From Enoplolaimus lenunculus (taxonomy: Eukaryota): DNA of 64,000 nucleotides. The stretch lies in the NCBI GenBank assembly GCA_030248215.1, contig JASANG010001329.1, forward strand, positions 434,001-498,000. Direction: 5' to 3'. Positions 4,773-51,363 of this stretch are shown here, in pieces; position 1 is the first letter of the stretch; each line of letters starts with the position of its first letter. The notes beneath the pieces were generated by a model, which saw only the letters and a program-made list of their open reading frames with translations, did no database searches and had not been told where the DNA came from. Position numbers and translations under genes: made by a program.

Positions 4773-6221
4773 TTACACCATTGACAATTGTGCAGAAAAT
4801 CTGGTTGGTCGAACATTGACGCGAAAATATAGTATTTCAAGCACAAGAACGCCGCCTCCAATTGTGATCAGACCAGCATGCAGACGTATCGATGTGAGCA
4901 AACGATAAATATCAATAATGTGAAACCTAGAAGAATCCTGAGCGGAAATTTTGGCTGCATTCAGCAAAGATAATCGTTTCCGTCGAATCACGTATTTATC
5001 GTAACCTAAAATTGAATGGCTTAATGCATTAAAACAACTGTCGATAGAAAATAGCTTTTCCAGAGTATTAACGGTAGTGAGTGGTAGATTTCTCGAGCAA
5101 TGATACGCACGAAACTTGGTTATACGTGGCGATAACAGTAATGTCGATAACGATGCAGATCCAACGCGTGTATGCAACAAAATTGACGTAGAAATGAAAT
5201 CAAGCAGCAGTAAAGGTGTCCTACGGCGCGCTGTGTGACCAACATGTGTTTGCACAGGGCTACGATTGTAGACGTCAAATAAAATACGAATTGCTGTACT
5301 CATTATATCATTGTCAGAACGAATTACAGTAACTGATTCATCCGGTCTGGCTGTTTCGATAAAAGCGCGGTCCCTGTGAAGTAAGCGATGGATCCAATCA
5401 GGAATTACAAGCTCACAAACGTTTCGACGCAAACATTTGTGAACGTCGTCAATGTTGTTAACGACACTTTTCATCGACAAAGGTTGTGAAATATACGCGG
5501 CGATAAGGTTGCTTCCAATACCAAGCACGAACAGAGCCCAGTATCCTTTCAACGCTCGAAATTTGCGCCGGTCGTTTAACGCTGGTGACAAACTATGTGG
5601 TAGATGACCGTTCGCGACTTTGCTGATGCGTCTAATAAGACGCTTTTCAACTTTATCACCAATCGCGAGCAATCCAGTTATCGCTGCGAACAAAACAATT
5701 GAAGTAGGTTTGAAAAGATGCAGAAAAAGTGTTGAACCTACATGTTTACGTACGGATTTCACTGACACAATAAAGAAATCGGACATATATCCGCATAGCC
5801 GAAACACTTTGCGGCTCATAACCGATGTTGATTCAGCTTTTCGTGCGATGCAGTCGCATTGTGGTTGTTGCGACAAGTCTCCAGTGTTTGCCAAATATTG
5901 AATCAAGCTTGACTCGTAACCAGCCAGTGGAATTGGCTTAACAGTCACGTTCAGTGTCGTGTGATATAGCAGTGATAGAAATGCTTCTATTTCGATGCCT
6001 CGGTGGGCGCAGTCAAAAGGAACGCCACGGGTAATAGTTTTCCTCCAGTGACGTACTGAAAAGTCTGAGTGTGGTGCAGTGAAACACGGTGTTGCATACG
6101 GTTGAATCTCGTTCATGCATATGGTTAGTGAGTTTGGTGACATTGATGTTGAAGTATCAACCGAAGTTGTCATTGTTTGCGTTTTGAAGTTGGAGCCGTG
6201 GTTGCATTCAGAGAAAAACAC
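4773..6221 (-). CDS. Divergent ionotropic receptor (IR/iGluR-like) membrane protein, intronless; true N-terminus uncertain
   Basis: 482-codon ORF with iGluR/IR-ordered motifs: S1 start (LTICMNEIQPY; GIEIEAFLSLLYHTTLNVTV), M1 (LFKPTSIVLFAAITGLLAIG), M3 (RALKGYWALFVLGIGSNLIAAYISQP, cf. R....W..F.LII.SSYTANLAAFLT.P), S2 start (VNNIDDV) and M4 (AGLITIGGGVLVLEILYFR). The first ATG is at 6173. Confidence 0.65.
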   Translation of the reverse strand: MFFSECNHGSNFKTQTMTTSVDTSTSMSPNSLTICMNEIQPYATPCFTAPHSDFSVRHWRKTITRGVPFDCAHRGIEIEAFLSLLYHTTLNVTVKPIPLAGYESSLIQYLANTGDLSQQPQCDCIARKAESTSVMSRKVFRLCGYMSDFFIVSVKSVRKHVGSTLFLHLFKPTSIVLFAAITGLLAIGDKVEKRLIRRISKVANGHLPHSLSPALNDRRKFRALKGYWALFVLGIGSNLIAAYISQPLSMKSVVNNIDDVHKCLRRNVCELVIPDWIHRLLHRDRAFIETARPDESVTVIRSDNDIMSTAIRILFDVYNRSPVQTHVGHTARRRTPLLLLDFISTSILLHTRVGSASLSTLLLSPRITKFRAYHCSRNLPLTTVNTLEKLFSIDSCFNALSHSILGYDKYVIRRKRLSLLNAAKISAQDSSRFHIIDIYRLLTSIRLHAGLITIGGGVLVLEILYFRVNVRPTRFSAQLSMV

Positions 6222-7958
6222 CCGTTATAGCCTTCCAGGAAAGTTATTTGGTTTACTTGACGAAGTTTTGAAACTGCAGATATTATACACAATTGCTTAT
6301 ATAGGAAACATAAAAATACTTTTAAGTTTGTATTTGAGATACAACTATCGTGTAAGAATATGTTGTCAGATATTTGTTCCAAAAATAAATCGTGTGAGTA
6401 GGCCTCTTTTGTATCAATTTTTATATGTGCAGTCGTGTGCTTCAGTTTAGCCGGCCTTAGTAGTTAATCAATTTTACCGTCAAGTCCAAGGGACACTTGT
6501 ACAAACTGAACGGCCCATGTTTACTTTTTGGGCCTTCCCATTTTCAGGGGGCACTGCAGTAGAACAGGCTTACATTTTTGACCGTTTAGGCTTAAACCTA
6601 GCATTTATGCTCAAACACCAGTTACAGCCCTAAACGTTACATTGGTCAATTCAACAAGCAAGAAACGGATCCGTAATTATTTATCCATAACATTTTTAGT
6701 GTTAGGTCTAAATGTATTATAATATATCAAACGCTGCATAAACACAATCCCTTTTGATCCGCAACGAGACTTTAAAGTGTTTCGACGATGAACCAGGTCA
6801 CAAAACGAAGTATAAAGACTGTGTTGTGCAGTACAACTAAGTATAAAAATGAACGGTTCTGAACGTTTGACAAAATTAGGTACCAATGTATATAGTAGGG
6901 CTATAACAGTAGTATAAGCAGATTCCTAAGTCTAAACCTAAACAGAAACGTAAAAATGAGCTTAAGCCTAAGCTTAAGCTTAGCCTAAGCAAAAAATAAT
7001 CTAAAGCTTAACCTAATTCTATTGCAGTAGCATAGAAAAACGGTCCGCCCCAGATTTCTAACACAGGCTGACAAAACGCTCGTTCAATATTTGACAGTGT
7101 TTTCAGCATTGCGTTCAAAACGGAAAAACCAGATTTGTTGTAATTTTAATATAATCTCTGAATGTAAACAAAACTAGTCCGCCTGCTTTGCGCAATGCGC
7201 AAAGTAAATAGCGAAAACACAAAAATTTCCACGCAAATTTTCTCTTCATAGAACGAAGAACAATTAATCACGTGTATTTCCTAAAGAATCTTTTGTAAAC
7301 AATGTAATGCTAGAAATTTGCCCAAAATACGTATGTGGGGTGTTCCAGCTTTAATACATAGATAAGAAAAAGTCTACGTATAATCGAGATGAAAATAGTC
7401 CTTTACTTATTTATAGCACAAGCTTGAGGCGTATTTTCGTAAAATAAATTATTTGCTGGCTGGCAAACTTCATATCTTTATTTTTAGCTTTTAGCAAACA
7501 TAGAACAAAACCATATCAAAATTGCAGTATACACGTCAACGATAGATAATTGGATCGAGTTATCTTGTACTATTGTAAGCTCAGAGAGAAAAAATACGCG
7601 AAACTTGAGACAACTGCAGTTGGCCGTGTGAATCCAATGAAATCTAACGCCAAATTAGATTTGCGTCAAAAATAAGAACGGTATAGAAAGTTATCTTATT
7701 CGTGTAAACTTTTAATTCTAGAGAACACAACAATATTTTGTTTAGTGTTAGTATCAAGCCATATACACGTGCAATTTTTTGCTGCGAGCAGTCGGTAAAG
7801 ATTTTTTACCCGCACTGCGCTTTACCGCAGAATTTCATTAGCTTAGACTTTTAAACTCAGGTCGAAGCTTAGGCATAAGCTTAAGCTTGAGCTTATGCTT
7901 CGGTTTAGGCTTACGTTTCGGCGCAGGTTTAGGCTTTTAAGAACAAGTGCATTCCTGG

Positions 7959-23598: not shown

Positions 23599-24832
23599 GT
23601 TTATTTATTAGGGTGTACTAGAGGTTAAAAATACCAGAACCTGAGGTCAGCAACACTATCGGAGCCGCAAGTGACGTAAAACTATGTAGCATTGCCACAA
23701 ATCCGGACTTTAGAATATTTTTATGACATGCCGACAATTTTTGTCCTCAAAATTGTACGAAAACTTTTATCCAAACGCACCGAGCGACGAAACTTCCGGC
23801 AAAATTTCTACAAGAGCTTGAGCCAGATTTCGATTTTCTGACGAAGGCGGAGCTGGAGGTACAGCTCCGATTGTACCCTGTTTATTTGCAGATACTAAAT
23901 CAATTAATGGTCGCACTATAGAGCTTTTCATACAATTAAATTCCACATTGATTGAACAGTATACATTGACTAATTTTGCCCTGGACGCCCCTCTAAAAGT
24001 AACATTGGCCGACGACTGTTTAGCCTAATTGTCCTCTAAAAACCTTAAAACTTGACTTAACACTTTTATTTGGTTGACGAAATAATTTTGTATGTTTGTT
24101 TATTGCGTAACATTCACGGTGAAACAGGAATTCCTGTTCCGGTATGGCAATCCTGTATTTTTCACTATCCGGTTCCGGTAAGAAATCCGGTATTTTTTCG
24201 CCGGAATTTTCCGGTATTGAAAATTTAACAAAAATTGGCATATTATATACATATTCTAACTTAATATATATTTATCTGAAATTCTCCGAGCGTGTATTGC
24301 CAAAATTTTCAATTTGTGCCACACTCCATAATTTATCATAGGTATGTTTCTCTATACCTACTGCATTTGTTTCAGGATTTTGTCATTCTAAATGGTGTGT
24401 TTGCAGCATTAAAAGCGATAAGATAGAGCTTAAAAATGAATTTTTCGGTAACAAATATTTTGTTTTCCGGTTCCGGCATTTTTTAACTTTCCGGTTCGTT
24501 ATTTTATAATTCTGGTTGCACCCTGGTAACATTGTATATTAAGTGTTAAAAATTATAACTGTTCTATTATTCGTTCGTTAAAGCTTCACTGTTAGATTAT
24601 TCCTTGCCTACGCTAAGACTTAAGAAAGTGTTCATACTAAACGTTATGCCATGAATACTTAGATGGGCGCACAGTTTTTCCGCATTAATGTAATTAAGCA
24701 AGCTTAAGCTTTAGACTAAATTCTTAGTCGGCTAAACTTCGGAATGCGTTTATAGCAAAGTATCATATTTCAAAGCAACATTGCCCTGCGATTATGTGAG
24801 AATTATACTCAGTTTAGAATTAGCATCTTTTA

Positions 24833-28853: not shown

Positions 28854-35542
<6,689 letters not shown>

Positions 35543-36927: not shown

Positions 36928-37020
<93 letters not shown>
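36928..37020. repeat. (AT)n microsatellite, about 90 bp
   Basis: Directly visible; abuts a hAT-like MITE at 37021. Confidence 0.97.
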
Positions 37021-37336
37021 CAGAGTGCAACCAGAATTACAATTTACCGGAACCGAATAGTGAAAAATGCATTTCACCAAAAATTTCAATTTAATCTTAT
37101 TTTTTGCTCAATTATTTGTGAAATGACCTTAGTCGAACATAGGTATTTATTTTATTTGTTGTATTTTAGATTTTTATCATCGACTGAAGTGAAATCCACC
37201 ATCAATGGCTTATATTCGGAAAGAAAATTAAAATGAATATTTCGGTGGCACGCATTTTTCACTTACCGTTCTTAATCCGCTAAAATTTTCAAATTCCGGT
37301 TCCGATTTGGTAAATTGTAATGCCGGTTGCACTCTG
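37021..37336. mobile_element. hAT-like MITE (CAGGGTGCAACCGG family)
   Basis: CAGAGTGCAACC...GGTTGCACTCTG termini; internal sequence nearly identical to 43330-43490. Confidence 0.75.
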
Positions 37337-38739
37337 CTGTAGACATTATGTATATATCCGATAAGATTAAAAAGGATTTCAGAACTGGAGCCCGATGTCG
37401 ATTTTCTACCAAATACATACACAACAAGTTGTTAAGATTGTTAAATATCCATACCTGATGGTTTGGTACTGCCATATTCCAAGACCATATAACACCAGCT
37501 GCATAAGGTAACGTTTATGCACAAAATCTCTAATTGTATATATACAAGAATACAACCTTAAAAATATACGTATATACTGATACTATTAGTTAATGTAAAA
37601 TAAGAGGCAGGGTTCCACGGGAATTTCTGTTCCGACCGGAATTCGTGCAAAAATAGATTCATGTTCCTGTATACGGCATTGTAGTCGAAGTTCACACCTT
37701 TTATTGTACGAGTGATGAAAACGAAAGAGAAATTGTTCACAAATTACCTTAAGGCACGTTTTCAATGGGATTATTACAAACCTACAAATTTTGCACTAAA
37801 TCATTCTGTTCCGTGTACTTTTTGACTAAAAATTTCCACGGTAACGTGACCCGGCTACGTAAACTTATCAAAAAGAAGACTCGTATCCGGGAATTTCCGG
37901 AGAAAGTACTAGGAATAATCGGACCCAGATGCAATTGCAACTCAACCAATTCTTGTTTTCAACGTATTCGTTCAATGTTGTACGAGGTCAAGGAGCGATC
38001 AGATATAAATTTGAGGTATGTATATATATACCGGAGCATGAAAGTAAATATATTCCAGAACCAATGTTAACCGCATATACATATACGTAGCATCTAAATT
38101 TGCGTACTGCAGGTAGTAGAGTTGACCCTGGAAGGAATTTTTACCGGGCTAATGAATATTAATAGCAGTTTATTGCTAGGCAAACATATTTTTGTTGAAA
38201 AATAAACGTTCAGTCAAATCAAAATTTTCTATATATTTGATGCACTGTAAAGTAAAAATGGATACAAGGGCAGGTTTTATAAAGTTTTTTCATGATCGAA
38301 ACATCAGATTCTCATTCGACTCTAAAAGACGCGTCGAGTAATGAAAATATTACATTAAACACCTGGCCCCGGTTTGTCCACGAAAAATCAAGTGTTGACC
38401 CGGCCCTGAGGCCCGGGGTCCCTGCTGGACCCACTAACATCTTTCATTGTTAGATAAATACTTATGTATATAGTATTTGGTTGCGGAAAAGTTTATAGAA
38501 GAGCGAAAAAATAACGAAAATTGCCAAATAATTTTATACAGCTATAGATTTGCAGTAAAAATAACTACAAACGAAATGACCTAGCACATTCAGTTTGTTA
38601 GCTACGCTTCTTGACTTGCCTGGAAATGCAGTCGCACTCAAATGTCAGCTATTTTAAAACGTAAAAAGTAGTTTTATGATAGCCATCCCCAACCGCAAGT
38701 ATCATGTAAGTATATACCAGTCGCAGTGGGACTAGATGT

Positions 38740-39565
38740 ATTGAGCGAAGCTCGAACACACTTATGCAATTAATCTAACATGCAAATTAGTTATTAGCTA
38801 ACTATCCATTTCAGGGTGCAACCGGACTTCCGGTTCCGGTAGGGAAATCCGGCACTTTTCATTGTCCGGTTCCGGGAAAAAATCCGGTATTTTTCACCGG
38901 AATTTTACGGTATTTTCGGATTTGAAAATTTTTTCTCATTCGAAAATTTATATTTATTGACATATTATTGTAACTTATTTTTCTAAAATTGTCTGAGCGT
39001 ACATTTCCAAAATTTTCATTTGGTGTCATATAACCAATTAAGCTAATATACAAATTATCCAATTGGCTAACTACTCATATATCGCTTCTGGCGGTCTATA
39101 CAAAAACCCTTCAGTAACTCAAATAATCACTGAATACTGAATTAAGTTAAAACGTTTTAATTTAGCCAATAAATTAAGCATAAATTAAGCTGATATGCAA
39201 AATAGCAAATAGCTAACTTTTCAATTTATCCGTTTTAGAGGTTTGTAACAAATTTTCTCGCACTCCCAAATCTCTTAGAATTGAAATTAGACTGCTTGTA
39301 ACCCCAATAATTAGCAAAAAACCCCTTAGTATTGAAATTACATTGCTTGTAACCGTAACAAGTAGTGAAATATCTTAAAAAGCCTCAATTTAGGCTTAAC
39401 CAATTATGCAAATTAGCCTGTAGCTAATCAACGGCTTACAATTTTAAAACACCAGTGCGAGGTTAATACTTTAGGATGATAGGCTTTCAATCAAAAGTTT
39501 TCTTTCGACCACCCGAGCACAAAATAGAAAACGCTTTGCCGAACTCCGAGCTTCGCTTCGTTCAA
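38740..39565 (-). mobile_element. DINE-1/Helentron-like element copy with a nested hAT-like MITE fragment (about 38812-39030)
   Basis: Reverse-complement similarity to 34204-34905; CAGGGTGCAACCGG terminus at 38812. Confidence 0.5.
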
Positions 39566-42500
39566 CCAGATACGGATGTCGGTTTTTGAAGGATATTAAA
39601 CCAAAATCGGATATCCGGTCACTCTATGAACCGGACATCCGGTTACTATATATATGCACTCAGTTGATACCATGCAAACTATAAGCGGAAATAAGAAAAG
39701 TCCATGTCAAAATCGTACCAAAAGAGAAAGCCGTGGTTTCTGCGCAATATACCAACGAACTTCAACGCTACGTAATGCCATATTAAAAACAAAAATTCTA
39801 AATGCTTTTGGACATGACCGTGGGTATTCACTGGGTCCTGACGGTGTGGGGCGTGCATCAGCCTTATCGCAATATATGGTTTCATTAAAGGCTTAAATCT
39901 CGACTTGGGATAGCCTAAACCGGCGAGCAAATCAAGTTTGCACCACCTCCGCTACGAACCCATAGCGAACGCATTTAGCCCTAAAATCTCAATTAGCCAT
40001 CGAATAAGCTAGTCGGTTGCGGCCCCAGGGTATTGTCAGCGACACGCTGGCGCTCAACCGCGGCTTCCACTTTCACATTTCATTTTGCACCCATTTTCCG
40101 CCAAATTATACAATGTTCATTTTCTGCCTTACGTATGCTTTGTAATATTTGGAGCATTGTGATAAGTTGGGTTATCTAGGTTACGACAGTTTTTAGTTCT
40201 GAGTGCTTGTAGCTGAAAATGAGGGGCGTGCTTACGAGGTTTCGATCCCATGACTCATGATCGACAGATTCTCATTCCAGCGCACTACCACTGAGACACA
40301 CCGCTTCACTATTAGCTGCTGACTTTCAGGTTTTTATGCCTTATAAGAACATCAAAATTACACTCATGTATCTTGGTTTTTCAATGTTTTACTGCTGCAG
40401 CATGCGAAGGCAATACATATGCATCAGTGTTTTAACCGATGTGCAGCATCAGTATGAGGTGTTTATTTTGCATCCATGCATTCGTATGTCAGAGGATTAT
40501 TATTCTGGTTTCAATTCGGGCATAGATCTCTAGCGATTTCATTATTATCAGGATAGGCAGTTGCAGCATAGTGCCGGGTGTGTCGAAAAAAGTATTTTAA
40601 TGCATATAAATTTAGGATTGGTACAGGGCTGCGTGTCATATTTGTAGCTTGTAAAATTTATGGTTTAAGTGTCCGAAGGCAAATTTAGCCTGGACAAGCG
40701 TTCGGCTGTATAGTCCTCTTTCAGAACCGATCGGAAACCAAATATATTCCAGTTCGGATCAGTTGAAAGTCCCCCCGTTTCGGGCCAATCTGAGCTTACA
40801 AAGCTGCACAAAATATGCCCAATTCTCAAAAAAATAACCTAGACCAATTTCCGATAATAAAATCTATGTAGCTATGTAGTTACCTTGCAGACGATAATGA
40901 AGAACCAATTAAGTTACTGTTTTTGCTAACGCTTTCATCAATAAATATTGAATAAATCTCACGGTGAAACAATATCAAAAAATACAATTTTCACACCTTG
41001 ACAGCGCTCTGAACTTTCTTAATAGATTAGTGAATACATAACAATCATGCTAATGTTTCCAACCAAAATTGCAAAACATTTCCCAATCAATTTTACCGAT
41101 CTTTACAATAGACTCGCAGGCACCTGACGCTTATTCAAGGTATACTGCCTGAGTAGTGCTACATTTTTACGATAAATTCATGCTCAACGGCATATAATTT
41201 CCAACGAGGTTTGTTGAGCTTTCCACCCATCTTCGAATCAACTCCATAACCGACATGGCAACCGTGACGTACAGTAATTTAGATTGGGAGTTTACTTTCA
41301 TCTAAACTGGTCACATTTACAATTTAAACATTGTAACAAACTGATCTCAAAAGGGAACGTATATTCTTGGCTGGAACGACTGCTGCATCAATACCGACAC
41401 CGCCCTGCGATTATAAACCTTCTAGACTTGCTCTGATTTCATCTAGTGTTTATATACGGCTAATTTTTGTGCTTATTTTAAATTAAGACACATCAACTGA
41501 TTTTGATTACGAGTGCAACAAGAAAGTGTTAGTAGGGGAGCAAAGTTTTCAATGGTGTCACAGTAGCTTTTCCTAACAAATTCTTTTAAAGCAGTAGAAG
41601 AGAATTTCGACCAGCGGGCAAACCTGTTTGTACGAGGGGTGTTGTTTCCTCGTCATAGTAGTTTTGAATATGTCGGTGCTCCCTCTATACTCCTACTTCA
41701 CGAACTGTTACATCAAGTACTTAGCTAACCAAAAGTGTTGTTCTTAAAGTGACATCATTTCATTAAATGTGACGTATGGTAGCTAGTCGAGCGCGAGTTC
41801 AAAAACATTGCGAAATCAACGTTACTTTTGCTGCATGACAGACAAATTGTTTGCTTTGTCGTTGTTCCAAACAGTCTCGGTTCAGTTGGATAGACGGGCT
41901 GCGTGGTGCAGTGGTAGAGTGTTCACTTAAGGATTTGTAGGCTGAGAGTTCGGTAATTTCACATACTTGTATGCCCTAATTTTCACCAAGGTCGCCCCTT
42001 GACCGTCCACCTTACCTTTTACTGGACACCGTGTTCATAGTGCGGCAATTTTTCATTGAGCTCATAGTATGTAAACCTTGACAATCGCCAAAAGTAAACA
42101 ATCGAAGGTAGATTTCGCTTCCGTGGATAAAAAGCTAAAACAGCAGAAAAAGTGACACATCCTTATAAGCCAATCCGCTTCACAATCAACTGCTGAATTC
42201 TTTTTATGCCTTAGAAGAACTTCAAAATTATACATATTGTAGTGACCCGAATAAGAGGCGGGGCAATAACAGGGGAGTTCTTGTTTTGAGTCCCAATCAA
42301 TAAGAGTTCGTATCTTTAATAAAGAGTCCGTAAGCACTTTTAATGCAACGGTAGTTGCGATTAGAGATGCCCCTGTGCCAGGATTTAGCCGTCCGTTTCA
42401 CCAGAGCAACGAAAAGTACATTTCACCGTGAGATTTAGTAGAAGAATGTGTTCGGCTGTTCTCTGGCGACCGGATATCCGGCTCCAGCAAAACATTGCCA

Positions 42501-42872
42501 TCCCCATTCGGTTTCGGCCCGGTGTATTCTTATCGAAATCGGAATTCCGGTTGCACCATGCAAAATATTTAGGCATTTGCATCTGTCGAAAAAATTTAGT
42601 TGTAAAATTATTCGTTTAGTATATAGGTGGTCATTTCATTTTTAATCTCTGTTTGGTTGGAATACCTAACGAGTCTCCGAAAGAGGGGCCGAGCTCCAGA
42701 TAAACGAAAAATCGAAATTCGTTTGCAGAAACGGGCCAGCACTGAAAGTTGTATATACCACTGAATCACGTTGATATATGCATTTGTCTGGTTTTATTTA
42801 GGCGAGCAAATTAATCATATAATATATTACGTAAATAAATTTTATTATAGAAACTTATAGAAACAAATTGAC

Positions 42873-45800
42873 ATGATTTCTCATTCTGAAAGCAGTCACT
42901 GGAGCAGCCTTAACCCAACGCTTCAAGTACTACCAGAAGAGCTTCAAGGTAAATTTATAATGCGTATTATGCATGGTACACTACGTTGTTGTTGTATTAG
43001 CCATCATCGTCGTCAGTGCTGTTGGGTTTCCAGGTTCAGGAATACAGCCACCATCTTTGGGTTCAGCCAGAGGTCCTCCACTTCCAGATCAGTGGGATTC
43101 GCTGGACATTGGAACAGGTGTTGTGTCGTATGAGATGCACGTCCACACAGGTTGCATGCCGCCGAGGTTTCTGTGGATATTCGACACATATACGAGTTGA
43201 GCATCTTCGAGAATCCAGATCGCAGTTGCGAGAGTGTGCATCTGGTCTCACGGGGTCAGGGTGCAACCGGAATTACAATTTACCGGAACCGGAATTTGAA
43301 AATTTTACCGGAACCGGAACCGGAAAATGAAAAATGTATTTCACCAAAAATTTCATTTTAATCTTATTTTTTGCTCTATTATTTGTGAAATAACCTTAGT
43401 CGAACATAGGTATTTATTTTATTTGTTGTATTTTAGATTTTCATCATCGACTGAAGTGAAATCCACCATCAATAGCTTATATTCGGAGTACAAGTGGCTT
43501 TCAAAAGAGATTCTTAAAAATTAGCAAAGTTAAGAAAACGGCCAAATTATAATACCGGAATTTTTAAATCCGGTAAAAATTTACCGGAACCGGAACCGGA
43601 AGGTGAAAAAATGCCGGAACCGGAACCGGAATTCCGGTTGCACCCTGCACGGGGTAGATCTTTTTCCTCCTGTGAGATTTCAGGAGGCCTTCCCCCGATT
43701 ACGGGATTGAGTGCGGCTGACCGTGCATCTTCCACTGTCGCTGAGTGAAGTTTTCTGAGGCCCATCTTGTAACCTTCTTCGCTCACTTCCCCATTCACCA
43801 GTAATCGGCTGACTTCTTCATGTGCAATGGTTCTTAGGTCTTTTCTAACAGGGAACCGTCTTATTGATGCAGCGAACGGTGGGTCGTTCTGTAGGTGGCG
43901 TAGCGGGTGCCCTTCCCGATGGCAGCTGAGCCAGAACTGCTTCGCGAGGAGGTAATCATGCTTCTCCACTTGCAGTATTTTGCATTCGTTGTGTAGATGG
44001 TGTTCCGGAGCCATTTTATGGTTACCTGTAATGCTTCTGAGTGCCACATTTTGGCTGACCTGAATCTTCCTCCAGTTGGTTTTGCTTACGAACGGTGTCC
44101 ATGCTGGTGCCGCGTAGTTGTAAACTGACTTGCCGATGGCCTTGTAAGTAACGGTGAGAATATCTTTGTTTTGACCCCTGGTGGAGCCTGCAAGGCTCTT
44201 CAGGACGTTGTTCCTTTGCGCCATTTTGCCAGCCACATTTTTGCACTTGGGTAAAATGTTACGCCTAGAACCCTTGGGTTCCTCGTTGCCGGGATTTCAT
44301 TCCCGTTGATGTAAACAGGGCATTTGGTTTTCAAATCACCGCTGAAGCTCGAAAACACAGTCATCGTTGACTTGGCTGCACTGAGGGATAGGCTGCGAGA
44401 CTCAAAATAGTCTGCTAGGCGCGGTAGGTATTCATTCAAGTTGTCAGCTGCTGCCTGAAGCGATGGGTTTTGAGACAGAACGGTGGTGTCATCTGCGTAG
44501 GTCATGAGGCTAAGCCCACTGTCAGGCGCTGGGACAGGTAGCTTGCTCATGTACAGGTTGAAGAGTTGTGGTGAAAGGACCCCCTTGGGGTACACCCATT
44601 GTGAGGTGCCTTTGCTTTGATTTGACGTTGCGAAATACCACATGACACTGGCGACCCTGTAGGTAGGCGCAGATCCAACGTTTGAAGTAGACTGACATTG
44701 TTGTTTCATGAAGGTCTTTGACGAGCATAGCTAGGTTCACCGTATCAAAGGCTTTGGCCAAGTCTAGGCCAACCAGTATAGCCCTGTGGGGCGGGTTCTT
44801 GCAATTGAATCCTCCAGCGATTCGCGTGCATATGTCGACCAGCACCGTGGTGGTTGAGTGCATTGCTCTAGATCCATGCTGGTGTTTGCCAAGGTTGATG
44901 CTGTTGTTGAGCGTTGGGAGAATTAGTTTCTCCAGAACTTTTGCGACAGGTGAGAGCAATGATACTGGACGAAATGAAGTTGATACATTGGCCGGTTTCC
45001 CTGGTTTAAGTAGGGGTACTATGGTTGCCGTTTTCCAAATGATGGGGTTGCGGCAATAGTTGATGGACATGTTGAATAATTTGGCCATGTATTGGATGGC
45101 TTGCGGGCCCAAGTGCTTTAAATGCACTGCGGTGATGCCATCCGGGCCGTAGGCCTTGGACGCTTTCATACTTTTGATCGCTGTTGCCACCGCCTTAGGG
45201 TCAAAATGTTCCATACTGCTTGGCGGTCGGTCTTTTTTCCGTTTCATGTCACGTAGCCATTGCCTGAGTTGCTTGGGTGAGTTGTTGGTTGATTTGGGGC
45301 TGAATTGCTTGCTGAACTTGTTTGCTACGTGTTGATTGTTGGATACATCCTTGCCGCTGAATTTGATTGCCATGTTGACCTGGTCCCTACTTTGACCAGC
45401 TAGGGACTTGACCGTAGACCATAGTTGTTTGATGGCTTTACCAGAGCTTAGATTGCATTTATCGAGCTTCTCCCTCCATTTTGATCTTTTATGCTCTATC
45501 ACTGCGTTATGGATCTGGGTATCGAGTTGAGCTATACCTGGGTCTTGGGGGTTGCGCCTGCGGAGCTCGTCGCGTTCCTTGCTTAGGGTAAGTGCGACTG
45601 AGGGGAAGTCAGCCTTACCAGAGGTATTCGACCACGCGGGACATGTGCAGTTGCTGCTTCATGGATGCAGGTTCTTAGGAACTTCTCCCCTGCTTCGACT
45701 GTAGTTGGGCTAGCAGCCTGCTGGATTTTTTCTTCCACCTTCCGTTGAAAAGCTGGCCAGTCAGCTTTGTTAAGGTTGAAGAAGCATTTCTTTTCTGCAT

Positions 45801-48800
45801 ACACTGGGGGTCCTTGGGTTGTGAGGCGAATGAGTATAGGTAGATGATCGGATGACAGTGTGGTTTCCGTGTACCATTCGCATGTCATTGCCCAGTCCTT
45901 ATGCACTAGTGTTATATCGGGAGAGCTGGGGCTTTGGTCTTTGGGGACCCTGGTTTGTGCTTTCGTATTCAGGACAACGTAATTTGATGAACCAAATTCA
46001 TCAGCCATTTCGGCCCCTCTGGCATTTTCCTCAGCCTGTGATTCCCACAGTTTGTGGTGTGCATTAATGTCACCACCTATGATGCCATGGCAGCTCTGCA
46101 ACGGGGGCCCAAGTGTGGCTTTGAAACCATTGGTGCAGCTTGAGCTGGGAGGTACATATATATGCAGACAACATCAAAGGTACCTTGCTTCAGCACTAGC
46201 GAGGCTCCGATCGATTCAGTGTGCTGGCTGTTTGGAATTGGGTCACTCATCTTTTTGAATGGTATTGATTCATGTATGAGTAGAGCAACTCCACCGCCGT
46301 TGTTGTTCCTGTCCTTCCTGAGCAGAGTGTACCCCGGGAAGGGTGGGTCTTTTACTTGCTCGGACAGTTTTGTTTCTTGGAGCATAACAACCTTCACATC
46401 TTTGTCGACGATGGAGCGATGTAGTTCGTCGGCTCTTCTTCTGAGACCGTTGATATTGAATTGTAACATCAGGATACCATGGTTATTATGCCCTTGCCTC
46501 GTAGGTGCCGGTTGAGATTGCGCTGTATGAGGTTGATTGTTGAGATTCATGCATACCGGGCAAACGAACTTGTTGTTATAGGCACTGATGTTCGGGAGAT
46601 TTGAGCACGACTTTTTGATGTGCACCCATTCTTTGCATTGATTGCAGAGGCAGGAGCCGCGATAACTGGATTTTTTGCATGTGGGGCAATTGTACATGGG
46701 GCCTGGATGGGGGTGAATTCCAGCCATGACTAGAAGTAGTAGGAGCAACCAGGCTGGAAGGGGATGCTCCTCACCCAAAAACCCGACTGACGATTGATGG
46801 AGGGGGGTGTAGCAGCCATTGGTCCGTCCATGGAAACCATTTCCGGAGTGTCTGTGGTACGTAGAACCTGCTGCTGTGACAGACGGTACACTACGTTACG
46901 ACGTATTGTGTGTGACCATTAGAAAAGAAATTGATTATGTGCGTTCTACTTACGTACCTAATTCCTAGTTGGAAGATACGTAGCGCAGAATGGCTATGTG
47001 AAATAGATTTCATCAGTATAGTATGCAAACCTTGACAATCGCCGAAAATAAATCACAGAATGTAGATTTCGCTTCATGGGATGTATTATTCGTTTTCCTG
47101 ATCCGTTTCCGGTAAATTTTTCAAATTCCGGCTTCCGTAAATTGCCATTCCGGTTGCACCCTGTCTGTGGCATTCAAATACGTACATATCATACATTTAC
47201 GTACCTATAATATTGTATGACATACCTATACATCATACGTAGGTACCAGGGATCCAACAGGAACTAAATTTTGCCGGAACAGGAACAGGAATTGAATTTT
47301 TATGCAGGGACCGGGAGAGGAACAGGATCCGGAATTTGAAATAATTTTCATTACCGGATTACTTTGGACTTCTTAAAAACCTGCCAAAAATGGCTTAAGC
47401 GAATTTTCAGCTATTTAATCCTCAGGCTTTGCGAAAAACAACGGAAACGGTTTATTAACAAAATGGAAGTAAATGGAAAAATACTCATGTCGAAATAACA
47501 ATTTTTTAACACAAAGTTTCCAATATTTAAGTGATTAGGCATAATTTAATACAAAACCATAAAACTTCCGGTTCCTTCATCTTTGAATACAAAAACAAGA
47601 ACAGGAATTGAGTTTTTGCAGGAATTTCTGTTCAATCCTGGTAGGTACTCTTACTGGCCTTCGTTTTTCATTACGGGAGAGCGTTTTAAACAGATACGTT
47701 ATTCAGCATTAAGGATAGTGTGTATGTTTCAAGTTTGCGGATGTGGATTTTTGGGCTTAAGTTTATGCTTACAGATCAGGGATGGGCGGTCTCGGGATTT
47801 TGTCCGGTCTCGGTCTTGCTTTTTTCAGTCTCGTTGGTTTGCAAACCGGAACCAAAGAAGTGAAAAAGCGATAAGCAATCAAAAAATTTCCCTTAGATCG
47901 CTGCTTATGCCCGGAAGTACTTGCGCATTTCGCCTACCAACACAAACAGCGGACGATTGTAGAGCACCGCTACATGTTATACAGCGATTTGAGAAACTGG
48001 ATGACCCCTCTGGTTACATAAAATCTATTTTTGAAAGGAAACCCAAAACACTTTGATTCTGTTGTGACAAAGCACAAATAGTTGCACTTTCGCGTGTAAA
48101 ATATTTTAGACGTTTAAAAAATTATGGGTCATCCGGATTTACAACGACACGCTATGTTAAGAAGGTTTTCTAGTCTATTCAGTTTGCCCGAGAGAAAAAA
48201 CAACACTATAGCTTTGAATTAGGAATTGTACCGAGGGTGTTTTCGAAAGGTGTGGCGACAGTAGTCAAGTGAAAAATAAAGTAAAAATAAGTTTTGGCGG
48301 CGATTTATTAGTTTAGAATTTAGATGTATGAAGCGGCAATTCAAAGCAGATAAAATATTCAAAAGTTTTGTTAAAAATCTTATTTTAATTTTCGGTAACT
48401 GTTAAAAATTCACCGAGACTGAGACCACAAATCTCGGTCTCGGTGTTGGTAGGTTGATTCTCGGTCTCGCTTTTTTGACCGAGACCGCTCACCACTGCCT
48501 CTAATACGGATGTTTTTCAAATGCTCATTTCCAAGCTTTCAAGTTTGTTCGCTACGAAATTACACGTTTTAATGTTCAGGCACATTAATGTGTTTGAACT
48601 TTTTATGAAAAATATGGCAACACAGCCCAATCCGCAGCTGCTGCACAGGAAGCTGCAACACTGTCGAAGGCTTCCTTGTGTAAATTTTGACATATACTTA
48701 TGTAGCAAAAGTTCAACTGTTTAAGAGCAGCTTTCGTGATAGGACGGGCGAGAGGTGGCTGTATACATATACACGATGACTCTGTCTTTTTTATATACGT

Positions 48801-51363
48801 TGCCTGGAAATCGAGGTTAAAGTCAGCGTTTTGTCTCTGTGTAAATTTTTAAAATTATGCGGAAAAACGTTCAACTACTAAACATCAGCTTTAACGGAAA
48901 GACAGGAGATGGGTGATGGGATATGTGATGTCTGGCTTCATGTCCGCATCCTGGAAACCGATTTGGGGTTAAGGTCATCTACATAATCATTTACCTGGTT
49001 GAGTAGGCTCTAAGCAACTAATTGCAAATACAACAGTTACTTTGAAAAGCGACCGTTTGGATAAATTCATTTGTAATAAACTATTTTACTTATGGTATTT
49101 TTGCAATACCCGTCGCCAGGGCAGGGTGGCACCGACTCCACGATTTGACCGAATCCGAATCCTGCATATTGCAAATTTCAGATATATCTATAATTTGTTT
49201 CAGAGTATCAACGTAATGCTAGCCGTATAACTTTTAATACGTTAATATATTTCGTCCCGACGTCAGTTCAGAGATTTCTCACCTGAAATAAAAAATATTC
49301 ATTTTTATAGCAAGGTATTTAAAAATTTTATTGCTTAAAAATGAAAAACATAGTGCCGAACTTTGTTGGATTCAGCTTTTCCACAACCGAATCCGAATCC
49401 GAACCTCAAATTTTTGCCGAATCCGAATTCCAACCTTTGTTGCCACCCTGCACCAGGGTGTAACCGGAATTACAATTTACCGGAACCGGAAAAAAAATAC
49501 ATGGCACCGAAAAATTCATTTCAATGTGGGATGTGCCGATTAATCGGCATCGGTAATAATCGGCAGTTTTCGTGAGTATCGGCACTGCAAAAAAATGTCG
49601 ATTCTTTGCCGATACTTTTTGCACATATAACAATAACAGTCAGTTGGAATGATATCAATTTCATTTCAGGGCACATATCTGGAGTCTGGTCTAGAAAACT
49701 GTTATCTCTTTTGCGTTTGTGTCGATAAAATTTATTGAAATGAACCGTTCTTATAAAATTCTAATCGTTTATAATGATGAAGGTTTAATTCATCCTATAA
49801 TGATGTAATGTAGTATACTATCTGTTTATTAAGCACGGTGTACTAAACGTGGAATCGGCAAAACTTTTGGTATCGGCACATCCCTAATTTGAATTTTCTT
49901 TTTTGTAATATTATTTGTTAAATAACCCTAGCTGGAGATAGGTATGCACTTTATCGCCTTAGATTTTTATAAGCCACGGAATATGCGTATAGTTTTATAG
50001 TTTCCGGCTGCCATTGTTAACGGAATTTCCTAAATCAGGCTGTAGTGTTGCATATGTAATATATCCTTAATATTTCTTTCTTACTCCATTAGGCTGCTCA
50101 ACAAGCCCGTATTCTTCGGCGATGTTATCGCGACAGCTATCAAACAATCCTTTGAAAACCGACCCGAAGCTGAATTCAATATGCGTGCAATCGCCTAATA
50201 TTATCACAGACGACGCTAATCCAATCATGTATGTTGCAACAAAAAAATTTAACGATCAGCCATCACTATTGGTTGTACCTGATGATGATGATGTTGTTCA
50301 AGCATCAACTGGCGCAGTTATGTCAGAGGCACATGAAATTTTGGTTGCGGATTATTGCGGTGATTACGTTAAACCCGTGGACCAAAACCATTATGAAACT
50401 GACGTGGGAGAATGTTCTGTTATTGGTCAGCCGGATAGTGGGGGCAACGAAATAGCGTCAATTTCAAAAGAATGTGCCGGAGTTCGGGATCACACGTACA
50501 ACAGCAATGCTTTGCCCCTAACATGGGTAAATCGGGAGATTTTAGTCGGGGCGCCAAGTACTGGTTCGGTGGTGCCTACAACTATTGATTGTGCGAATGT
50601 TAATAGTTATTCGTCAGGCGTTCAGTTTTCAGAATCTCGAATAGGGGTTGAACAAAACAGTACAACTGATGACATCGGCCGTTGTAATTCTCCTGAGTTC
50701 AATATATTGTCGGCGGTGTGTGCCGATGAGATTGAACAAATCAGAACAACTGTTGACGTCGGTGGTTGCAATTCTCCTAATTTCAATATATTGTCGCCGG
50801 TGTGTGCCGAAGATCGGCAAGTAGCACCTGGTGAGTCTGCGTCAAGCCCTGCTCCGTCATCGAACACGACGTACGAGTATTCCTTATGCATCGATAATAC
50901 ATCGTCAAACACAAAATGCCAAAATCACTCAAAGTATTTTAATAATTTTGTTGGTGTCAAAATTCAAAATAGCGCAACATCTAACGTCAAAGCAATGAGT
51001 TATGAGCGATGTTCTGCAAGGGAAACATCAGACCAAAACACAACGCAGTCGGGTTTAGCTCGATCGTACAACAAACAACCGCTGGCTGTGGTTGAAACTA
51101 AAGAATATCAAGATCGCCGTCAGCGAAACAATGTTGCTGTTCGCAAAAGTCGTGAACGTTCAAAGCAAAAGCATTTAGCGATGAGTGCGCGATTGCGGCA
51201 ATTGGAGCACGACAACAGAGCACTCAAGCTACGACTAGCTTATTCAGAAGAAAAATCGAAATTGTTCAAAAAACTGCTGGCGCAGATTTTAAGTAAACAC
51301 AATTCGGCGGCCAGTTTCCGTATGAAACCAGTTCAAAATCGAATTGATCGAATGAGTAGTTAA
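42873..51363 (+). CDS. cebp-1: C/EBP-family bZIP transcription factor; join(42873..42948,50093..51363), 448 aa (exon 1 less certain)
   Basis: C-terminal EYQDRRQRNNVAVRKSRERSK basic region plus leucine zipper. Pyrimidine-rich acceptor at 50092. The upstream donor CAA G|gtaaat at 42948 matches the phase-1 acceptor and gives an open frame. Specific orthology to cebp-1 is presumed. Confidence 0.85.
43013..46778 (-). pseudogene. Retrotransposon single ORF (PHD-APE-RT) broken by at least four frameshifts and one insertion
   Basis: ORF pieces 46077-46778, 45583-46101, 44522-45502, 44200-44709, 43547-44236 and 43013-43256 continue one polyprotein in different frames. Confidence 0.9.
43257..43647. 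mobile_element. hAT-like MITE inserted in the retrotransposon ORF
   Basis: TIR CAGGGTGCAACCGGAATT / AATTCCGGTTGCACCCTG and perfect 8-bp TSD CACGGGGT; removing it restores EEKDLPRETRCTLSQLRSG. Confidence 0.93.
46811..46884 (-). ncRNA. Predicted HDV-like self-cleaving ribozyme at the 5' end of the retrotransposon
   Basis: Manual fold: P1 GUCUGU/ACAGAC; P2 AGCAGCA/UG(G)CUGCU; P3 GGU/ACC; L3 UCUACGU; P4 UCCG...CGGA; J4/2 CCAA. G1 directly abuts the TSD. P1.1 is weak. Confidence 0.7.
47247..47640. mobile_element. hAT-like MITE
   Basis: CAGG...CCTG termini with a perfect 8-bp TSD GTAGGTAC; internal ACAGGA subrepeats. Confidence 0.75.
47777..48497. mobile_element. hAT-like MITE with GGTCTC subterminal repeats
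   Basis: CAGGGATGGGCGGTCTCGG...CCGAGACCGCTCACCACTG imperfect TIRs; no clear TSD. Confidence 0.55.
49526..49886. mobile_element. hAT-like MITE (GGATGTGCCGAT TIR) nested in a CAGGGTG-family MITE
   Basis: TIR GGGATGTGCCGAT / ATCGGCACATCCC, near-perfect 8-bp TSD ATTTCAAT/ATTTGAAT; second copy at 51916-52267. Confidence 0.7.

Follow-up and report, generated by a model that had tools for sequence, protein, structure and literature searches.

Several described HDV-like ribozymes bear closely on the locus reported here. In the elements L1Tc, NARTc and ingi the L1TcRz/Pr77 ribozyme takes up the first 74–77 nt (PMC3185411, PMC4035085); as described there, it heads an APE-type LINE with a single ORF and a 2A peptide near the ORF start, its cleavage site is the first base of the element, and it has a 3-bp P3 and a P1.1 of one pair (PMC3185411). 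The CPEB3 ribozyme and the head of the gharial element Vingi-2_Gav are described with seven P1 positions, a P1.1 made of a C-G pair plus U·U, and a 7-nt L3 with U20 and G25; P4 follows P1.1 directly and a C follows P4 directly (PMC9901934, PMC5786205). A C. briggsae ribozyme, whose numbering fits a 7-position P1, has a P1.1 of U:A plus C:U and is reported to cleave at 9.3 per min (PMC13635239; the main text of that paper mentions no retrotransposon). For the R2 5′ ribozymes a P1 of 6 or 7 bp is given as typical (PMC3774820), and fungal variants with an extra P2–P3 base or a C-G first pair are reported to be active (PMC5640933). The canonical descriptor places P1 at positions 1–7 and has a four-base J4/2 of the form C-R-R-A (PMC6326823). 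Vingi is absent from a 2018 compilation of LINE clades that carry ribozymes, and our literature search found no paper giving Vingi a ribozyme, although a prior listing under another element name is possible. RNA-only platforms for gene insertion now make use of Vingi and keep its native 5′ UTR.

The locus lies in a 64,000-nt stretch of DNA that was analysed as a whole (the window), and its predicted ribozyme likewise occupies the first 74 nt of an element. It shares with L1TcRz each of the features listed above, its own cleavage site being a predicted one; the two differ in that the window element has an animal host, a PHD-like finger, no RNase H and a six-position P1, and L1Tc belongs to a sister clade. 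With CPEB3 and Vingi-2_Gav it has in common the 7-nt L3, U20 and G25 at the same numbers, and the placement of P4 and of the C after it (18 of the first 29 bases are identical to CPEB3 by eye; PMC9901934), whereas its P1 has six positions and its P1.1 is U-A plus C·C. The C. briggsae ribozyme has the same kind of P1.1, one U:A pair and a pyrimidine mismatch (PMC13635239). By analogy, a role in 5′ processing would be shared with the R2 ribozymes, which match in P1 length but belong to an RLE-type, rDNA-specific element, have a long J1/2 and often cleave within upstream 28S (PMC3774820). The head extends predicted 5′ ribozymes to the Vingi clade. Its HDV-like subtype is a natural one in which P1 has six positions and P1.1 covaries freely, and both 7-bp descriptors and Rfam miss it. 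This short-P1 subtype is what is new here; no literature on short-P1 HDV ribozymes was recognised by title or the start of the abstract.

The retrotransposon and its 5′ boundary

The element is a full-length Vingi-type non-LTR retrotransposon of 3.9 kb on the minus strand (42988–46884) with a single, broken ORF. It is bounded by a 13-bp target-site duplication, unique in the window, whose 5′ copy lies at 46885–46897 and whose 3′ copy (42975–42987; both minus strand) follows a short (AAC)n tail; the first three bases of the duplication could equally be tail, so its length is 10–13 bp. The first base inside it, at 46884, is the first base (G1) of the predicted ribozyme, which supports the first-pass annotation in placing the HDV-like fold precisely where a Vingi-type LINE begins. 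The main-ORF frame is open from G1 and its first in-frame AUG is at 46727; three AUGs in P4 and at the J4/2–P2 junction (46834–46884 and downstream, minus strand) are out of this frame, and non-AUG or leaky initiation of the main ORF is possible.

Reading from the 5′ end, the element encodes a leucine-rich 2A-like peptide that ends in HPGP, without the strict motif's D and E (46698–46751), a PHD-like Cys4-His-Cys3 finger recognised by its spacing only, with no Pfam match on the window copy (46551–46688), an APE endonuclease domain in two frames (45835–46475; PF03372, PF14529), a reverse transcriptase (RT) domain also in two frames (44254–44992; PF00078) and a C-terminal Cys/His finger (43106–43156), and the ORF stops at 43013–43015 (all minus strand). 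The ORF is disrupted by four frame changes (near 46150, 45620, 44575 and 44250) and one insertion. A nested, unstranded MITE of 391 bp (43257–43647), which we take to be hAT-like, has 18-bp identical terminal inverted repeats and an 8-bp duplication; with it and the frame changes, the window copy is unable to make protein. The MITE insertion adds 399 bases and keeps the LINE frame register, and MITE-related pieces lie near 24115–24525, 37020–37340, 38812–38904 and 47085–47168.

As described for the Vingi clade, the element has one ORF, about 1000 aa long, that encodes APE and RT; the window ORF spans residues 49–1048 of a full-length relative (P0121). A Pfam search of the window element found no RNase H, the domain used as a criterion for the Ingi clade (L1Tc, ingi). 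Among 72 proteins found with P0121, the best 55 (at least 36% identity) list no RNase H and four of the 17 weaker ones do. Compared by eye, one RT stretch is identical to that of C. elegans Vingi-1_CE at 48 of 90 positions, ungapped (PMC11662393), and to that of Ingi-1_Pp at about 28 of 90 (PMC3708506); Vingi-2_CE of C. elegans also resembles the window element, the comparison with both C. elegans elements being by RT only (PMC11662393). Together the architecture and the by-eye identity favour a Vingi-type element closest to C. elegans Vingi-1. A loose 2A-like form occurs in 24 of 56 relative proteins and the strict form in none of the 56; one of the genomic loci discussed below has the strict motif (L005:377). 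An earlier survey (2013) detected no 2A-like sequence in Vingi (PMC3708506). Across the window's Vingi lineage, 2A-like peptides precede the PHD/APE region, most of them without the D of the strict motif.

The predicted fold, its copies and its relatives

The 74 nt proposed in the first-pass annotation were verified on the minus strand from 46884 to 46811, and all of the named helices are present; numbering below runs from G1 along this strand. The predicted ribozyme (46811–46884) is HDV-like and of the short-P1 subtype, with its cut predicted 5′ of G1. The 5′ strand of P1 (nt 1–6, 46879–46884) pairs at six of six positions with nt 30–35 (46850–46855), which gives a purine–pyrimidine pair, G1-C35, at the cleavage site, and the 5′ strand of P2 (nt 10–15, 46870–46875) pairs equally completely (six of six) with nt 69–74 (46811–46816); A16 (46869) may extend P2 by pairing with U67 (46818), given one bulged G. 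A 3-bp P3 (nt 17–19/27–29, 46856–46868) closes L3 (nt 20–26, 46859–46865), in which U20 is 46865 and G25 is 46860. In P1.1, whose 3′ strand lies at 46848–46849, U22 pairs with A36 and C21·C37 is unpaired. P4 (nt 38–41/59–62, 46823–46847) has a 4-bp base with 17 nt inside, and J4/2 (46817–46822) begins with C63 (46822) directly 3′ of P4, exactly where a catalytic C had been placed at first pass; by position, from the analogy with HDV C75 and CPEB3 C57, this would be the general acid. The second base of the window J4/2 is C, so it has the form C-N-A and departs from the strict C-R-R-A. At the level of pairing and order, the set P1-P2-P3-L3-P1.1-P4 follows the nested double pseudoknot of HDV.

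Other copies of the element were examined through the contigs of three sequencing runs (X1, X2 and X3) from two samples of one study; X1 and X2 are one sample, which may be the window's source, and contigs drop rare variants. No second copy was found in the window, and no RNA run is listed among the runs containing the stretch. Rather than extending further 5′, a possibility raised at first pass, the element's copies branch at 46884 in the contigs of all three runs. In X1 the element record ends exactly there and three flanks attach, the window's and two others; X2 gives the same picture, with its end, branching and three flanks at this base, and X3 has two flanks, the window's and one other. 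No substitution is listed across 46811–46884 in the copies seen, so the C·C of P1.1 belongs to the family and not to the window copy alone, and the family supplies no covariation of its own; a G restoring P1.1, which the first-pass annotation proposed to look for in other copies, was not seen among them. One X3 record extends 194 letters beyond 46884 at a depth of 171 (the window flank has 13.5); it is tentatively read as another insertion site, one of the X1 flanks being compatible with its first 30 letters, a reading that does not account for its depth. Of the X3 loose ends at 46692 and 46884, one looks to us like an amplification or template-switch adapter, and X3 may be amplified DNA or cDNA-derived. 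In all three runs there are also records in which foreign sequence flanks the element at 46713 and at 46830; they appear to come from a short internal piece of it (window 46713–46830) that lies at another site and is without most of the ribozyme.

The descriptor used here (a six- or seven-position P1, 3-bp P3, U opening L3, at least one P1.1 pair, P4, C-N-purine and P2) was composed after the candidate and its relatives had been seen. On both strands of the window (128 kb) it has three matches, with the candidate at the top (score 30, against 26.5 and 25). When the surrounding 251 nt were shuffled 3000 times with dinucleotide content preserved, no shuffle reached the candidate's score and one gave a match of any score; simulated sequence of window composition contained nine matches scoring at least 30 in 19.6 Mb (0.46 per Mb), and that of element composition 11 in 22.1 Mb. 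An Rfam search of 40000–50000 returned no HDV, CPEB3 or drz family and nine weak unrelated matches at E up to 10. In pseudoknot-free folding the candidate is no more stable than its shuffles (z −0.02; four relatives have values of −1.4 to −2.6). A double pseudoknot should behave in this way, but the result lends the fold no support.

Relatives were collected by an endonuclease alignment, which retrieved 31 loci (28 from metagenomes and three from prokaryote assemblies). Five keep the 2A-like motif together with upstream DNA (L004, L005, L006, L008 and L009); the other close relatives are 5′-truncated and the remaining loci distant or fragmentary. Over the 272,940 bases of these loci the descriptor has seven matches, of which those in L004, L005, L006 and L009 score 35.5–38.5 and lie on the sense strand 176–244 nt upstream of the 2A-like motif; simulation of 41.8 Mb gave no match at this level. 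The matches in L017, L018 and L023 (minus strand, 25.5–27.5, elsewhere) were treated as chance matches. L008 fits by hand, its P4 being longer than the descriptor span and its first P1 pair mismatched. The fold is therefore at the same place in five of five relatives that retain the 5′ region (four by descriptor and one by hand), and these keep all of the helices, the kind of helix conservation that the first-pass annotation had proposed to look for in other copies. Target duplications were sought for L004, L005, L006 and L009 and none was found, so their starts are not independently fixed. Relatives were found in 0 of 169 and 0 of 6 stretches of viral contigs, and the three loci from prokaryote assemblies are distant and without the fold. 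The LINE sequences P0017, L029 and L030, filed under bacterial metagenome-assembled genomes, are probably eukaryotic contamination.

The window head and the five others were aligned by structure using coordinates; MAFFT could not align five of the heads and misregistered a pair. At helix positions the six share 25–55% identity; pairing is kept in 123 of 126 cells, and two-sided change is seen in each of the 21 columns. Since the descriptor through which four relatives were chosen itself requires pairing, most of these paired cells follow from that choice. For P1.1, 11 of 12 cells are paired, a level that six of 720 permutations reach. The second P1.1 pair, on which the descriptor makes no demand, forms in all five relatives with three pair types, P1.1 having one base pair in the window and two, with covariation, in each relative. 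U20 is kept in all six heads, G at the sixth L3 base in five (L005 has A), and a C directly after P4, then N and an A as the third J4/2 base, in six of six. The first P1 pair is G-C or G·U in four heads, C-G in L009 and a mismatch in L008, and in P3 the window differs from every relative by a swap of all three pairs. Covariance models built on L004 and on L004 plus L006 place the candidate with exact ends at E values of 2.4 and 6.3, which are not significant; the L004-only model finds L006 at E 7e-9, and both models miss L005, L008 and L009.

Six P1 positions are present in all six heads where the canonical descriptor has seven, and nine bases separate L3 from the 3′ strand of P1.1 in all six, one below the canonical number. 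A 7-position register was rejected, since the seventh pair forms in only two of the six and costs a P3 pair; the first P3 pair forms in every head. J4/2 has five bases in the five relatives and in the window four if A16-U67 forms with the bulged G, or else six; the five-base J4/2 of the relatives may compensate structurally for the six-position P1. Given R2 stems of 6 or 7 bp, a P1 of this length is unusual yet within the class. The first-pass annotation had wondered whether the short P1 and weak P1.1 mark a variant or a decayed copy, and the data speak for the variant and against decay: P1 is six positions lineage-wide, the weak P1.1 is unchanged in the other copies with no G restored, and the fast C. 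briggsae cleavage provides a natural precedent in which one U:A pair and a pyrimidine mismatch suffice as P1.1.

Role of the head and alternative readings

It is quite probable that the 74-nt head is a short-P1 HDV-like ribozyme that cuts just 5′ of G46884 and so releases the element RNA. Its start at the element boundary, the order of its helices and the uniform 5′ start of the copies are observed, as is the recurrence of the fold, with compensating changes, in five distant relatives; from analogy with HDV, CPEB3 and L1Tc, the head should form a double pseudoknot with C63 as general acid and U20·G25 at the metal site, and leave a 5′-OH product. A host transcript would read into the element, and the head would fold during transcription. 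With a metal close to U20·G25, C63 would then donate a proton to the leaving group, and cleavage would leave an element RNA that begins at G1 with a 5′-OH; target-primed reverse transcription of this RNA would yield copies that all start at the same base. This chemistry and role are modelled on HDV, CPEB3, L1Tc and R2, and an internal promoter on the same bases, like that of L1Tc, could operate alongside.

Such a promoter is also one form of a rather unlikely alternative, in which the fold is kept as a structured 5′ module that does not cut (for protein binding, as an exonuclease shield, for translation start or as an internal promoter) and the precise 5′ end is set by transcription start. The 77 nt of L1Tc serve as an internal promoter as well, with the start at the cleavage site, and the R2 fold protects 5′ ends; the absence of an in-frame AUG before 46727 and a P1 one position below the canon would also suit a module of this kind. 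Against it, the R2 P1 is itself reported as 6 or 7 bp (PMC3774820), and what the six otherwise dissimilar sequences keep (U20, the C after P4, the A at the third J4/2 base and P1.1) are features of an active site rather than of a promoter. That the helices arose by chance in a GC-richer 5′ UTR is extremely improbable: the Rfam search gave no matching family, our own covariance models gave the candidate no significant score and the descriptor is post hoc, but a fold expected 0.46 times per Mb starts exactly at the duplication boundary and recurs at the same position in five of five relatives, which largely refutes this reading.

A further reading accepts an active ribozyme in the lineage and takes the window family for a crippled descendant with few copies, its P1.1 damaged by C·C and its P2 bulged. 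The window family does have the sole P1.1 mismatch among the six heads, the lowest descriptor score and no folding signal (z −0.02), and only three full-length 5′ junctions were seen. We nevertheless consider this very improbable, because the copies seen share the same 74 nt, so that this version has transposed; the three-pair swap in the window P3 needs selection, and a U:A pair with a pyrimidine mismatch is active elsewhere (PMC13635239).

A Vingi head of this kind bears on the origin of the CPEB3 ribozyme, which has been described as absent outside mammals. Compared by eye, positions 2–74 of gharial Vingi-2_Gav match CPEB3 at 37 of 40 bases over CPEB3 2–41 and at 14 of 15 over 54–68, where the last change is compensated, and the middle part of alligator SINE2-1_AMi shares the CPEB3 P4 arms (PMC5786205, PMC9901934). 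These sequence likenesses suggest that the CPEB3 ribozyme originated from Vingi. The vertebrate Vingi branch nearly equals CPEB3, and the present lineage adds an invertebrate outgroup to the question.

Target sites, host and neighbouring features

In the 5′ copy of the target-site duplication, L3 finds its complement at bases −12 to −7. When 20 nt of flank are included, a pseudoknot-free model, of a kind that undercounts pseudoknots, gives this flank–L3 helix a probability of 0.94. The flank may therefore slow cleavage at the window locus, in the manner of L1TcRz, which is described as sensitive to upstream sequence. The seven bases that open the window duplication recur at a distance of 12–18 nt beyond G1, both in the X3 flank and in a two-record consensus of X1 and X2; three of them match the element tail, as priming predicts, and six are complementary to L3. 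The 7-base motif occurs four times in the window's 128 kb, two of these in the duplication. At two insertion sites of the family, and probably at a third, a hexamer complementary to L3 lies 7–17 nt upstream of G1. A 6-base L3 complement is also found at −17 to −12 in L005 (L005:174–179), and the flanks of four of the five relatives have none. The shared flank motif is no more than a lead towards a possible target preference. A bolder proposal, that a distinct, active short-P1 class heads an entire lineage of invertebrate Vingi elements and that L3 also reads the insertion site, strikes us as unlikely, somewhat more so than a non-cutting module; if true, pairing between L3 and the target would help target choice, or would throttle cleavage of co-transcripts as a built-in switch.

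The window is intron-rich animal DNA of about 37% GC, and nematodes and a fly are the sources of the element's named relatives. The first-pass suggestion of a probable nematode host is neither shown nor excluded by these data: the two host splice acceptors seen are not TTTCAG, this hexamer is not enriched in the window, and splice-site counts there do not favour a Caenorhabditis-like host. Elsewhere in the window, a 483-aa open frame with no Pfam match lies at 4773–6224 (minus strand), and 32436–33300 (minus strand) carries what are presumably exons of a STE20-like kinase. Closer to the element, 46999–47082 is the edge of a very high-copy short repeat, found in hundreds of contigs per run, and an intronless C/EBP-like bZIP gene occupies 50071–51363 on the plus strand.
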